A DNA stretch of 64,000 nt, from positions 63,449 through 127,448 of IMG/VR virus record IMGVR_UViG_3300021255_001258. One strand, 5' to 3'. Below, piece after piece: positions 29,273-63,808 of this stretch (positions are counted from its first letter, which is position 1; each line of letters opens with the position of its first letter). Under the pieces are notes generated by a model that saw nothing but the letters and a program-made list of their open reading frames with translations, searched no databases and was not told where the DNA came from. Origin of the DNA: a virus (taxonomy: Duplodnaviria > Caudoviricetes). Both the position numbers and the translations under genes were made by a program.

Positions 29273-29360
29273 CAAGCCCGGAGGGACTCGAACCCTCATT
29301 CGCGGCATCAGACGCTCTTACAGATTTAGAGTCTGCTGTTTTGCATTAAACTACGGGCCT
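29273..29360 (-). tRNA. Amber suppressor tRNA, anticodon CTA, long variable region
   Basis: Acceptor AGGCCCG/CGGGCTT plus G73; D stem GTTT/AAAC; anticodon arm GCAGA-CT-CTA-AA-TCTGT (anticodon 29327-29329); T arm GAGGG-TTCGAGT-CCCTC. Confidence 0.88.
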
Positions 29361-33798: not shown

Positions 33799-33996
33799 TC
33801 ACCGCCCATCATGTACTTCTATAATTTCACGCTCTTTATATTCCTTTAAAAGCTTCATGGCTCTCGGATTTGTGGAAAGCCAATATCTTTTGCCAGAAGA
33901 TTTGTGAGTTTTAGAACTCATGTGGACACAATGCCCTTGTCCGTGATCGCGGATATATTTAGCTTCATTTGCGCTAATCTTAATCAAGTATTTCAC
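33799..33996 (-). CDS. Small hypothetical protein
   Basis: 65-aa ORF, AGGAG RBS. Confidence 0.5.
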   Translation of the reverse strand: MKYLIKISANEAKYIRDHGQGHCVHMSSKTHKSSGKRYWLSTNPRAMKLLKEYKEREIIEVHDGR

Positions 33997-34070
33997 TCCT
34001 AATTAATATATTTACGCACAAAAATAGGGCAGCAATAGCCACCCTAAAAACAATGCGCATAATGTTTAAT

Positions 34071-34144
34071 TGCAGGAGCCAGATTTGAACTGACGACCTC
34101 CAGAGCATGAGTCTGGCGAGCTACCGAACTGCTCCATCCTGCTA
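34071..34144 (-). tRNA. tRNA-Met (CAT), initiator-like
   Basis: GGAGCAGTTCGGTAGCTCG D-arm, CT-CAT loop, GTTCAAATC T-loop, 1:72 mismatch. Confidence 0.8.
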
Positions 34145-34150
34145 TAAAAA

Positions 34151-34465
34151 TTGCAACCATTGCAGCCGCATACAAACCACTGAGTCAATTACACAACACT
34201 CAAAAACTTTCCTGCGGATTTTATCGAGTATTAGTCTTTATTACGTAAACTTTATGTTATAAAGAACGCTGACATTTAACCGCTAAACGCTAAATGCTAA
34301 ACATTGAGCTTTTACCCCACATTTGTATATAACGCACCAATCCTTCTAAGCGTTATATTCTCCTAATAACAGGATTCCACATCCATTATAAAGAAAATAT
34401 GTTTTGAAGCGGAGATAAGGCTCTCCGCAGGCCGTGTAAGTTCGCAGTTTTCGCAATAGTTGCAA
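34151..34465 (-). ncRNA. Candidate structured ncRNA downstream of the DIP1984-like gene
   Basis: 13-bp closing stem TTGCAACTATTGC/GCAATGGTTGCAA, internal long-range pairs and a 7-nt-period repeat. Confidence 0.65.
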
Positions 34466-34473
34466 AATGTATA

Positions 34474-35109
34474 TTATACCTCTATATATGTCACTGAGTT
34501 ACTAATGCTCAGTCTAACGTCAACATCTGCTTCGAATGCGTCAATGTCGGCATCCATAGCTTGGATTTTTGCATACAGATTTAATGGATCAACAAGTTCC
34601 CACTCATTCTTTGCCCTATAAGGTTCAGAAATCGCATTTAAATCCGCTTCAGATACCTTCTTTTCGGAATCTTTTCCCAAGAAAGTCTCAAGCATTTTGT
34701 CAACCTGAGTATCAACCCTTTTATTTTCTTTCTCAACATTATTCGTTGCTGTAGCCCACTGAGACTTCATTGTCTGAAGCAGCATCTTATCATACATAAT
34801 TGAGTTCTTGCGCTCAATGGCTTCGGCTACAGTATATTTCTTTCCGGCAATTTCAACCATTGTCGTAGCATTGCTTTGGACAATCGCCGATTTTAATTTC
34901 GCCCGATTCTCAATTAAATCAGAGACAGACTGATACGAAGCTTTAGCGTTTGCCTCGAAATTCTCCAATTTAAAATTACCAACTTTGTCCGATGACTTCT
35001 TCTTGCTATCCACAAAAGAAGCAGAAGAGAGTGCCTTATTTATTTTCTGGTCATACAATTTAAGTTCAGTCAACGCCTCTGTAATACTAATTTTTCTTGT
35101 ATCAGCCAT
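34474..35109 (-). CDS. DIP1984-like helical protein
   Basis: ITEALTELK, LKSAIVQSNATT..TVAEAI and C-terminal VD..LS..N pattern; family recognised by eye. Confidence 0.6.
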   Translation of the reverse strand: MADTRKISITEALTELKLYDQKINKALSSASFVDSKKKSSDKVGNFKLENFEANAKASYQSVSDLIENRAKLKSAIVQSNATTMVEIAGKKYTVAEAIERKNSIMYDKMLLQTMKSQWATATNNVEKENKRVDTQVDKMLETFLGKDSEKKVSEADLNAISEPYRAKNEWELVDPLNLYAKIQAMDADIDAFEADVDVRLSISNSVTYIEV

Positions 35110-35253
35110 GATAATCTCCTTTTAATCATATTTGGCGGATTTAAGGTCTCCGCCGGGACCAATATTTAACTATGGCTATTCGGCTCATTGGAACCCCAAA
35201 ATTTTCATATTTAAGACACGCCACCGCCTGTGTCACCATAGCACAAATAATCA

Positions 35254-35526
35254 TTAGTTAATTGCTTCTTTAACAGCCTTGCCGAATTTTACCTTCGGAG
35301 CATACTTTGCCGGAACTTTAACGGCTTCCCCAGTTCTCGGATTTCTAGCTGTCCGAGCCTCCTTGTAATCAGCCGTAAACTTAATGCCAGACCACGGAGT
35401 AACCCCGCCTTCATCCTTCATATGATCAACAATTACTTCCATAATAAGATCCAGAACTTCCTTTGTATCCTTCTTAGTCATTCCGGTCTTTGCAGCTGTT
35501 TCGCTAATAAATTCTGCACGATTCAT
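35254..35526 (-). CDS. hup: HU-family DNA-binding protein
   Basis: MNRAEFI...ARTARNPRTGEAVKVPAKYAPKVKFGK. Confidence 0.92.
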   Translation of the reverse strand: MNRAEFISETAAKTGMTKKDTKEVLDLIMEVIVDHMKDEGGVTPWSGIKFTADYKEARTARNPRTGEAVKVPAKYAPKVKFGKAVKEAIN

Positions 35527-40032: not shown

Positions 40033-40272
40033 GTAGTGTTCCTCCTATTCCTAAGTTAGTTACCCTTCGACAATGTTATCTATACTTGTCTAATCGACCG
40101 TTCCCAGGTTGACTGTTCCTACCCATTAGAACTGTTTACAGAGCCTGCACAGAGCCGTAGGTTAGGGTGTACGCCTACGGGTGTGATAATATAGATAACG
40201 TAGATCTCGAAGATCTTAATCTAGTCAACAACGGACTTTTCAAGCCCGTGACTTTAGTCATGGGTTATTGAC
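38759..40272 (-). mobile_element. IS200/IS605-family IscB element (non-autonomous, no tnpA in window)
   Basis: Left end GTCAATAACCCATGACTAAAGTCACGGGCTT; right end CTCATGACTGAAGTCACGAG followed by ATGA. Confidence 0.85.
40045..40272 (-). ncRNA. omegaRNA (HEARO-type) scaffold
   Basis: Non-coding structured region directly upstream of iscB with GTTGACTAG, CTACGTT and ACATTGTCGAAG segments typical of these scaffolds. Confidence 0.8.
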
Positions 40273-47914: not shown

Positions 47915-48300
47915 TTGCCCTCTAAGCTACCCAAAACAGGAACGTCCACGCCGTGGGTAGCGGGCAACGGGAATAGTCCCGGCTAATACCTGTAATGGAG
48001 GAACAAATGGCAAATAGGAGCATGGCCGCAAAAATTATTAAGGCGAAAAAAGAAGCAGTAAAGGATATGACTGAGTCGGCTAATAACTTTAGCTGCACTC
48101 GGGCATTCCGAGACACTAGACAGTCAAAATATGACTGGTTTGGTACAAAACCATATAGTACGGCTAAATAGTCCATAGCTACGCATAGATTCTCTGATGT
48201 GGACGAGGGTTTGTGTGGATAGGACATTTAGCCCAGATTCTGCCCGTAAGTACATTGCGGGTGGAGATGTAGGCTAAAATCTGGCACTCATGCCATAAAT
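47915..48300 (+). ncRNA. Second candidate structured non-coding region
   Basis: Multiple hairpins, no credible ORF. Confidence 0.35.
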
Positions 48301-62200: not shown

Positions 62201-63808
62201 TCGTGTTTTCTGGAATTGATATTGCGCATATTTTCCATGATAAGTATGTTGGAGCAGATGGGAGAGTATATGAGTTTTAGGAAGAGGTGATAGAATGAAA
62301 AACAAGTATTATTACTGGATTGATACAGAGTTTCTTTATGGAGATTCTACTCCGAAGTTTGCCCTTTATCGCGGAGAATATGAAGACGGAAAGAAAAATA
62401 GAGAAACAGAGGAAGTGATCCTGTGGGAAGCCTATGAAGATGTAGATGGTGTTGCAGAGGCAGTTAAAGATGGAGATATAAACCTTGGCTGGGATTTAAT
62501 TGATGAATATATTAAAGACAAACTTGGATTCTTGCCGGATTATGAGATTAACTGAGAGGAGATGATTAAATGAAAAACGTAAGAGATTATCAGGAAACAA
62601 TGCAGAATTTATATGAAGCTGCTATGAAATATCCCGATGAAAAACTTGCAAAAGCGGTTGGAGAAGCAAGGGATTTGGTTGTGGAGTATAAAAATATTAT
62701 TGATAGTTATGAAACAAATAAAAAAAAACACATTTGATGAAGGGAGAATCAATTATGAAAAATGTAAAAGATCTTTGGTTGGAATTTGGTGATGTGCCTA
62801 TGAACCCCGAAACGGAATGTATTGAAACAGAATGGAACGGATTTTTGCCAGGAACTCACAGAGAAGAGATTTGGCACTGGTTTGAAGATACTTTTGACAT
62901 TAGCGTTGCGGAAGATTTGATGTGATGAAAAACAGCTTTTATGAGAGGAGAAGATATATGGAACGGACATCATATTGCGAAGAAAATAATTGCCCGTGGT
63001 TAGACAAGGAAAGGGAAGTTTGCACATCACCAAATGATATTTATGGTAACAAGTGTGATTTTGATAACGGAATTTTTCCTGGTTATGACGATGAGGGTAT
63101 CAAACTTAAAATGGTCACATGGGAAGGAGATCTTACACAGTTTCTTGTTGAAGCAGACACAAGGGACGAGGCAATCAGTAAAGCAATTACGGCAAATAAA
63201 GAATTTGATAGATTCTGCTACGGAGGTAATGGTCGTGATAATTTTGATTTAGAAGACTGTGGTATTGAAGATCGTGATTCGTATGATGTTTATGATATTG
63301 ATTTTGATATATTATGTGAGATTATTGAAAGAAATGATTGGTTTAAAGGCAAATTCGGGGAAGCAAAAGTATTTAATGACTAATAAAACTCGCCTTTGAA
63401 AGGAGATGGCATAATGAAAACATACATTATTGATTACGTTGTTGGTAACACATATAAAGTAAAGAAGATAAAAGCGGAAACGGTTGAACAGGCAATCAAG
63501 AAAGCAAGAGTTAAATCAATTGTTGATATTAATATTGAGGAATATATTGTTAAAGACAAGTATCAGCTTAGAGACTTTTAATAAAGGCACGTTTGATGAA
63601 GGGAAGTGATTGCATGACAGTAACAATAGCAGCAGAAAGAAATGCAGCTGTAGAAGTAACCTGTGAATGGGAGAGAAACTGCTACCATGCCAGAGTTTAT
63701 GAAAATTGGGGTGGTGAATGGCATCAGACACATGAAAGTAATCCTTATTCAATAAAAGAAGACGCAATGAAGTCATATAAGAGATTTGTTAAGAGGTATA
63801 TTAAATAA
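59259..63808 (+). other. Run of ~18 small hypothetical early genes, many separated by an 18-bp motif
   Basis: Co-oriented ORFs with RBS; includes paralogs 60358-60561 and 63614-63808. Confidence 0.7.
60558..63597 (+). repeat. Dispersed intergenic motif WWRAAA-N6-TTTNAW
   Basis: Copies at 60558, 60937, ~62721, 62925, 63383 and 63580, each at or next to a stop codon and just before the next RBS. Confidence 0.6.

Follow-up and report, generated by a model that had tools for sequence, protein, structure and literature searches.

Regulators that read regularly spaced RNA motifs are known from Bacillus subtilis, where TRAP acts on the trp leader and HutP on the hut mRNA. In both cases, short single-stranded motifs at fixed spacing are read side by side by the subunits of an oligomer; TRAP reads 11 repeats, and HutP sites are triplets with 4-nt spacers, i.e., a 7-nt period. 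ROOL and GOLLD are large, ornate, pseudoknotted RNAs of Bacillota phages and prophages, typically found beside tRNA genes and of unknown function. We analyzed a phage locus that resembles both types of system in part. It lies in a 64,000-nt stretch of DNA, hereafter the window, that covers positions 63,449 to 127,448 of the IMG/VR virus record IMGVR_UViG_3300021255_001258. That phage record spans 127 kb and is about 65% complete, with the window as its right half, and the phage occurs in ruminant gut metagenomes. On the minus strand, a gene for a 211-residue helical protein is followed by a non-coding interval of 329 nt. We confirmed that this interval encodes a real, conserved, strand-specific and multiply knotted structured RNA, and we present the case that it may form a ribonucleoprotein with the product of the gene in front of it.

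Like the targets of TRAP and HutP, the RNA contains motif arrays at fixed spacing (7 + 4 units with an exact 7-nt period and conserved phase). This likeness is one of logic only: the period is that of HutP, and the units add up to the 11 repeats of TRAP. TRAP and HutP act on cis-regulatory leaders of about 50–80 nt that switch a terminator, whereas here what appears to be a free-standing, knotted RNA of about 313 nt lies behind a protein gene. Moreover, their ring proteins are β-rich or α/β, in contrast to the helical bundle in our AlphaFold2 (AF2) model, and the core repeated here is UYAR, not GAG or UAG. The window protein had no Pfam match to the TRAP (MtrB) or HutP families. With ROOL and GOLLD the element shares the large, ornate, pseudoknotted RNA carried by phages or prophages, but these RNAs have no dedicated protein gene, whereas the RNA described here is smaller and lies behind one protein family; neither Rfam model matched it. 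A further comparison is Ro60 (Rsr) with its Y RNAs (YrlA/YrlB). There, too, the RNA is encoded beside the protein gene, the paired ends form a closing stem with most of the conserved nucleotides, the interior is modular and variable with a tRNA-like domain in some members, and both systems occur in phages and bacteria. Y RNAs differ, however, in that they contain neither heptad arrays nor a pseudoknotted frame; no TROVE or vWA domain was found in Pfam searches, no Y RNA or YrlA match in Rfam, and RtcB is absent from this phage record. The protein gene and the parts of the RNA are located as follows.

34474–35109, minus strand: gene for the 211-residue helical partner protein (phrog_1491; orthologue of phage T5 T5.085), from the list of open reading frames (ORFs)
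34145–34473, minus strand: whole non-coding interval, 329 nt, from the fold z-score and conservation in relatives (nhmmer and covariance model)
34152–34464, minus strand: RNA core of about 313 nt, inside the whole interval
34452–34464, minus strand: 5′ strand of the 13-bp closing stem P1, followed by a conserved A-rich junction at 34440–34451, from alignment counts
34434–34439, minus strand: 5′ strand of the long-range pseudoknot P2, UUACAC, from alignment counts
34409–34433, minus strand: 5′ H-type pseudoknot with stems S1 (GGC/GCC) and S2 (GCGGAGA/UCUCCGC), from a scripted direct search
34327–34394, minus strand: variable region with two hairpins in the window and a length that differs among clades, from the alignment
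34262–34310, minus strand: heptad array 1, seven 7-nt units, six nnnUYAR and one nnnUCUU at the start of the small hairpin, from the pattern count and alignments
34250–34264, minus strand: small hairpin CUUUA/UAAAG between the two arrays, pairing in 73% of alignment cells
34227–34254, minus strand: heptad array 2, four UAnnnnn units, from invariant A columns 66, 73, 80 and 87
34166–34227, minus strand: conserved UCGAUAAAAUCC motif and 3′ three-helix hairpin (H6, H7, H8), from alignment counts
34189–34194, minus strand: 3′ strand of P2, GUGUAA, in the apical loop of the 3′ hairpin, from alignment counts
34152–34164, minus strand: 3′ strand of P1 with a conserved GGC before it and an invariant G-U as innermost pair, from the alignment and a helix search in 41 loci

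The folding energy of the 329-nt interval was −94.1 kcal/mol compared with −74.6 ± 4.5 kcal/mol in shuffled sequences (z = −4.31). We derived a structure from the window sequence and counted its pairs on an 18-sequence MAFFT alignment that had not been fitted to any structure. Pairing was possible in 85.2% of the alignment cells compared with 73.3% in column shuffles, and 28 pairs (122 cells) had changed on both sides, which was matched in none of 500 shuffles. When the 3′ partners were slid by 1–3 columns, pairing dropped to 34–46%. G-U pairs were plentiful, with about 40 cells in P1 and about 50 of 90 cells in H7. Since these would be C-A mismatches on the other strand, the fold can form only on the strand of the gene, and an RNA is therefore favoured over a DNA element. 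The initial annotation had placed a structured RNA of ~315 nt behind the gene, and the fold z-score together with conservation in relatives bears this out. The ORF list of the window contained no frame of 40 or more residues wholly inside the gap on the gene's strand, and the 7-nt recurrence of invariant columns does not fit a coding frame. The product of the interval is best explained as a non-coding, stable RNA about 313 nt long.

The ends of the RNA are joined by P1. In the alignment, 97% of its cells were paired and 7 of 13 pairs had changed on both sides, and its inner end was invariant, with a C-G and a G-U pair flanked by AAAA and GGC. A 13-bp closing stem had been noted from the window sequence before; it is present, one base off the earlier coordinates, and the distance of about 8 nt from the stop codon given for the element holds as the distance from the stop to the first paired base. 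In 41 loci from many clades, we also searched for the best helix that pairs the first 140 nt past the protein match with the final 38 nt of the element. The median closing helix was 14 bp long, compared with 8.5 bp in shuffled controls, and 37 of the 41 loci had a closing stem of 12–22 bp with unrelated sequence and the same ends (CG|AAAA ... GGC|UG). In these 37 loci, the 5′ side is A-rich past a terminal C-G or U-G, and the 3′ strand begins with UG (UA in one) past GGC or AGC.

Several pairings inside the closing stem that had been proposed from the window sequence could be followed in relatives. TTACAC/GTGTAA is conserved as the long-range pseudoknot P2, with 98% of cells paired and compensatory changes in 5 of 6 pairs. 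Directly past P2, GCGGAGA/TCTCCGC is retained as stem 2 of an H-type pseudoknot. MAFFT had misaligned this 5′ hairpin region. In a direct search of the sequences, the script found the pseudoknot in 17 of 18, with differing stem sequences, and it was seen by eye with a longer loop 3 in the eighteenth. The competing pairing CCTGCGGA/TCCGCAGG is not conserved; instead, CCGCA pairs locally with TGCGG, and this helix covaries. The ATATAACGC/GCGTTATAT pairing exists in the variable region as described, but only as a clade-specific feature. In the 3′ hairpin, (T)GAGT/ACTC(A) is conserved as the apical helix, in line with the TGAGT/ACTCA pairing of the initial annotation. H6 was paired in 99% of cells with 4 of 5 pairs changed on both sides, H8 in 90% (3 of 4 pairs), and H7, which consists mostly of G-U pairs, in 94% (0 of 5 pairs). 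One relative has a large insertion in the loop of the small inter-array hairpin that lengthens its stem.

The 7-nt-period run seen in the window sequence proved to be conserved in number and phase. Six consecutive UYAR cores with exact 7-nt spacing lie at 34269–34307, and this is the sole occurrence in the 64-kb window, with 0 expected from 100 shuffles. The register of array 1 is conserved in the 18 sequences; within the clade, the units agree in number and phase, two single-base insertions aside. Aligning the 3′ half of 21 sequences gave invariant T columns at 12, 19, 26, 33, 40, 47 and 54 and invariant or nearly invariant A columns at 14, 21, 28, 35, 42 and 49; past the small hairpin, the invariant A columns 66, 73, 80 and 87 mark the second array. 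RNAalifold found no conserved or covarying pairs inside the arrays in the 18-sequence alignment. Other clades vary the number of units, with more of them in L067 and L068. Two variants (L027:3118–3560 and L030:3115–3480) keep the closing stem, GCGAAAAC, AAAUCC and GGCUG, and have UUGAGUA-like units at longer, irregular spacing in place of UYAR. Readings of the heptads as stops in each of the three frames, as mimics of anticodon loops or as RNase E sites were weighed and rejected, because the family consensus UYAR, mostly UCAA, suits none of them.

The RNA is coupled to the gene in front of it. Relatives of the protein comprised 480 clusters at E ≤ 0.001 among 714 candidates, and tblastn found the gene in 746 phage records. 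In viral contigs, a nucleotide-HMM match lay directly downstream of the gene in 30 of 36 loci, and a covariance model of the 3′ half of the RNA (R1) added L024, L030 and the duplicate L031. In contigs of bacterial genomes, the RNA followed the gene in 18 of 20 loci, the remaining two being cut or fragmentary. Altogether, by either model, 53 of 56 related loci had the RNA directly downstream, and two of the other three were cut or fragmentary. More than 50 loci had an R1 match where one was expected and on the expected strand. Searches that started from the RNA gave a corresponding picture: R1 had two matches in 150 Clostridia genomes, both with the gene directly upstream, and a DNA-pattern search of viral contigs yielded five true elements, four with the gene upstream and a fifth cut by the contig end. 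The other six of the 11 matches to this pattern were chance matches in coding sequence and were discarded. The order is fixed, i.e., the gene comes first and the RNA 8–90 nt behind it, in phages and genomes of both Gram-positive and Gram-negative hosts. The link between RNA and protein gene is thus almost obligatory. The RNA is single-copy within the 127-kb phage record, and R1 had no other match in the window.

By eye, the shared plan was also recognized behind the gene in six further phages, i.e., a T5-like coliphage, a Klebsiella Vequintavirinae phage, a Vibrio Demerecviridae phage, a Pseudomonas phage, Lactococcus phage AM5 and Salmonella phage SeKF_80. In each, the long closing stem ends CG|AAA and GGC|UG, the 5′ part is pseudoknotted, and a run of 7-nt units precedes AAAUCC and the 3′ hairpin. 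The corresponding gap of Clostridium phage D-1873 contains a heptad run and a covariance-model match. Phage records with the T5-like version at 90% identity or more number 440; in T5 nomenclature, taken via the DT57C record, the RNA lies between T5.085 (the protein) and T5.084. Among the 60 records listed of these 440, none annotates an RNA at the site (55 have no feature there, three no annotation at all and two only hypothetical coding sequences). The Rfam search suggested in the initial annotation likewise matched no family, and the conserved structure and repeat that it had expected behind homologs were found, so neither check refuted the idea. In Rfam 15, only the tRNA reached threshold in window 33950–35300, and all other matches had E ≥ 0.67, far below gathering. 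No Rfam match lay on the element in nine related loci, the T5-like one included. For RAGATH-27 (RF03100, gathering score 76.1 bits), the best match in the whole phage record was 14.8 bits (E 1.7), with none at the element (G000 97593–97921). When the phage collection was searched at the DNA level, the window matched nothing but the tRNA, and a literature search found no paper on the RNA or the protein. Two further structured RNAs were seen downstream of relatives. A drum RNA (RF02958, 47.7 bits) lies at L041:3904–4011, about 400 nt downstream of the heptad RNA of phage D-1873 in the same long non-coding gap, and a SAM riboswitch aptamer (RF00162, 49.5 bits) lies at L027:3731–3815, where it follows the variant heptad RNA of this viral contig at a distance of a few hundred bases.

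The protein matches the profile phrog_1491 over residues 4–211 of 211 (E 9.1e-67). The label "tail fiber" attached to this profile is doubtful, since early and tRNA genes surround the gene and the product is hypothetical in most records; the label should be dropped. Neither Pfam nor NCBIfam has a family for the window protein, PADLOC gave no match, and sequence and profile searches of the PDB returned nothing meaningful. The AF2 model (pLDDT 88) is a helical bundle of long helices with small β-hairpins, for which Foldseek against the PDB and VIA-align wide found only generic helical bundles (syntaxin-like and designed bundles, best Z 9.0). Among its conserved loops, K37-K38, K42 and K150-K151 are basic. 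Prediction of a homo-oligomer of three copies gave a median score of 0.39 against a mark of 0.42, a value that we count neither for nor against an oligomer. No longer, fused version of the protein turned up when we looked for one, which is weak evidence.

The protein had initially been called DIP1984-like. Formal HMM and profile tests do not sustain this, and a resemblance in motifs is what is left of it. The window protein did not match DIP1984/DUF6847 (PF20935, NF038048), and 5 of 21 relatives had subthreshold matches with a best E of 0.0028; conversely, PF20935 detected nothing in three genomes that encode the 211-residue family. Comparison with true DUF6847 proteins by hhalign gave 0.8% probability over 28 columns with shallow profiles, and the DUF6847 crystal structure 3KDQ (chain entry 3kdq_C) ranked sixteenth in Foldseek (E 0.86, TM 0.25–0.34). 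In the nearest named ESM Atlas cluster (score 0.87), 16% of members have PF20935. Both families are small helical proteins of unknown function, and both contain a twice-repeated helix-start motif, x-[TL]-x-x-E-A-[LI]. Moreover, true DUF6847 (PF20935) genes in Clostridia also precede a conserved RNA-like region, of about 190 nt and with a covarying long-range stem. In the Clostridia genomes inspected (L080–L088), this region starts near GAUGGUAGC, has a stem of the type GAGUAC...GUACU and often a T-arm-like hairpin GGUUCGAnnCC, and ends with GAGGGUGGGAWNGGGG. It is unlike the heptad RNA, down to this end motif; it had no Rfam match, and R1 did not match it. The DUF6847 gene and its RNA-like region may be a second, separate protein-RNA pair.

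Downstream of the RNA in the window lie two further features, the first of which was missing from the initial annotation.

34069–34144, minus strand: tRNA-Met(CAU), abutting the RNA interval and beginning 7 nt past P1, from ARAGORN and Rfam
34025–34046, minus strand: terminator-like hairpin with a U-run, at the end of the gene-RNA-tRNA unit, from a promoter/terminator scan

No convincing promoter or terminator was found between gene and RNA, and a terminator is present past the tRNA. A rumen metatranscriptome contig spans the stop codon (34400–34719), and in the same run the depth was 16–27 on RNA contigs compared with 5 on the coding sequence. These data give a weak hint that gene and RNA are co-transcribed and expressed. 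In metatranscriptome run X18, the RNA is linked to the downstream region on a contig from a related phage, where 71 differing nucleotides replace the tRNA-Met (window 34073–34147); the tRNA slot behind the RNA hence appears to be exchangeable. Among 45 loci, a co-directional tRNA followed within 150 nt in 17 and within 600 nt in 23. In two phage clades, an acceptor-less tRNA-like module lies inside the variable region (L036:948–1013, 50 bits, model positions 4–67; L024:3208–3267, 42.6 bits, positions 7–64; Rfam tRNA model), and ARAGORN called neither of them. The two closest viral relatives contain, between RNA and tRNA-Met, an ORF of 63–65 residues with a His/Gly/Asn-rich tail (GHGHGHGH...; L001:3982–4173, L002:3980–4177) that is absent from the window.

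We propose, at a probability of roughly 0.55, that gene and RNA encode a dedicated ribonucleoprotein in which several copies of the upstream protein bind about 11 phased heptads displayed by a knotted RNA frame. The RNA would be made on one transcript with the 211-residue gene ahead of it. RNase P cleavage at the adjoining tRNA-Met would free its 3′ end, and in phages without that tRNA an intrinsic terminator would set it. As the comparison of relatives shows, the long closing stem joins the 5′ and 3′ ends, and two pseudoknots and the three-helix 3′ hairpin lock a rigid frame. Between the parts of this frame lie the 7 + 4 heptad units (core UYAR, then UA), for which no conserved pairing is seen. 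Copies of the helical protein could dock side by side on these arrays, kept in register by the knotted frame, and the particle would presumably form early in infection. We suggest that it acts on RNA or tRNA metabolism or in host takeover, because the pair is located in tRNA clusters, some members have tRNA-like inserts, and genes for PhoH/PIN or β-CASP RNases are nearby in this clade. Of the initial idea of an undescribed protein-RNA system, the conserved RNA, its coupling to the gene and the lack of an Rfam match stand. The ring oligomer with one repeat unit bound per subunit is hypothetical, and no result points to the proposed switch, sponge or anti-defence module.

Several observations weigh against such a particle. 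The protein is acidic, with a pI of about 5.2 (range 5.1–5.4), and structure searches matched no known RNA-binding fold. Folding of the single sequence gave the arrays no lower pairing than the rest (0.56 vs 0.60), and since it does not mark them as unpaired, we infer their single-stranded state only from the absent conserved pairs. Bacillus phage KLEB27-3 has the gene, but annotated ORFs and no recognizable element downstream of it. Some DNA may be present in metatranscriptome libraries, and contig depth reflects expression poorly. Finally, a cis-acting 3′ untranslated region (UTR) would give co-occurrence and co-transcription equally well.

This last explanation, in which the element is part of the mRNA, as a structured 3′ UTR that stabilizes or autoregulates the upstream gene or as a processing platform for the downstream tRNA, and no free-standing RNA exists, would account for the constant strand and position directly past the stop codon with no own promoter detected, for the contig that bridges coding sequence and RNA, and for the tRNA or terminator that often comes next. 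Protection of a 3′ end nevertheless needs far less than some 300 nt that comprise two pseudoknots, 11 phased heptads and invariant nucleotides at the junctions, and tRNA processing cannot be the conserved role because a downstream tRNA is found in fewer than half of the loci and varies in identity. The higher depth on the RNA than on the coding sequence in one run argues weakly in the same direction, and we regard a purely cis-acting element as unlikely, slightly more so than a second explanation that leaves the RNA free-standing and removes its stable binding to the neighbour protein. There, the RNA would serve as decoy, sponge or scaffold and act on a host factor, for instance an RNase, an RNA-binding protein or an enzyme that modifies or cleaves tRNA. 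The protein would then be only a functional partner, for example a chaperone, an enzyme or another pathway component. The setting in tRNA clusters and the acceptor-less tRNA-like modules would suit this role, as would an acidic protein lacking a recognizable RNA-binding fold; repeated short single-stranded motifs are, moreover, typical of sponges such as CsrB. What makes us doubt it is the tight directional coupling across hosts, which is commoner for dedicated protein-RNA partners than for sponges of host factors, and the heptad core that differs by clade (UYAR; UUGAGUA-like in L027 and L030), a better fit to co-evolution with a phage-encoded partner than to a conserved host target.

For a DNA-level element, such as an iteron-bearing replication origin or a site of packaging or recombination, speak the short repeats and inverted repeats in an AT-rich gap and, in this clade, the replication-related genes (HU, PhoH) around it. 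We consider it highly improbable. The helices need many G-U pairs, and the other strand would have mismatches in their place. Compensatory changes in pseudoknots would have no meaning in duplex DNA, whose helix is not in phase with a period of 7 bp, and the orientation is fixed relative to one gene in unrelated genomes.

The gene order on the minus strand of the window is an 850-residue protein of unknown function, HU, the 211-residue protein, the 329-nt gap, tRNA-Met, the terminator-like hairpin, a 65-residue ORF, PhoH and a Clp-protease-like gene. In this phage clade, the pair is neighboured by PhoH, PIN-PhoH or β-CASP/RMMBL RNase genes. The synteny with PhoH, ClpP and HU is clade-specific and does not extend to other clades, PhoH being within the flanks in only 4 of 53 loci. 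An Rnl2-type ligase gene lies about 87 kb from the element, and none is adjacent. Elsewhere in the window, we found a suppressor-type tRNA with the anticodon CUA (29273–29360, minus strand; named "tRNA-Pyl" by ARAGORN), which suggests that TAG is read as sense in some genes of the phage. A HEARO RNA, i.e., the IscB/HNH-associated omega RNA, lies at 40055–40272 (minus strand; 127 bits, well over the Rfam gathering score), and an HDV-like ribozyme of the F. prausnitzii type (RF02682) at 47926–47997 (plus strand; 53.4 bits, over the gathering score).

In bacteria and phages, few RNAs that are large, conserved and knotted have a protein dedicated to them. The familiar cases are Ro/Y RNA, SRP, RNase P and tmRNA/SmpB, each of which has revealed a basic process. 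The pair described here may, although we rate this as less likely than not, be one member of an ancient, very widespread and undescribed class of ribonucleoproteins, found in T5-like and many other phages, prophages and bacteria. In this class, an oligomer of a small helical protein might read about 11 heptads on a doubly pseudoknotted frame, and its target during infection might be the metabolism of tRNA or RNA, or host defences that are RNA-directed. Between T5.085 and T5.084, the gap now lacking a feature should be annotated as a non-coding RNA. Since phages of E. coli carry the pair, its function is testable by ordinary genetics and biochemistry. If true, our proposal would mean that hundreds of sequenced phages, relatives of the model phage T5 included, encode an RNA of a new class together with its new protein partner.

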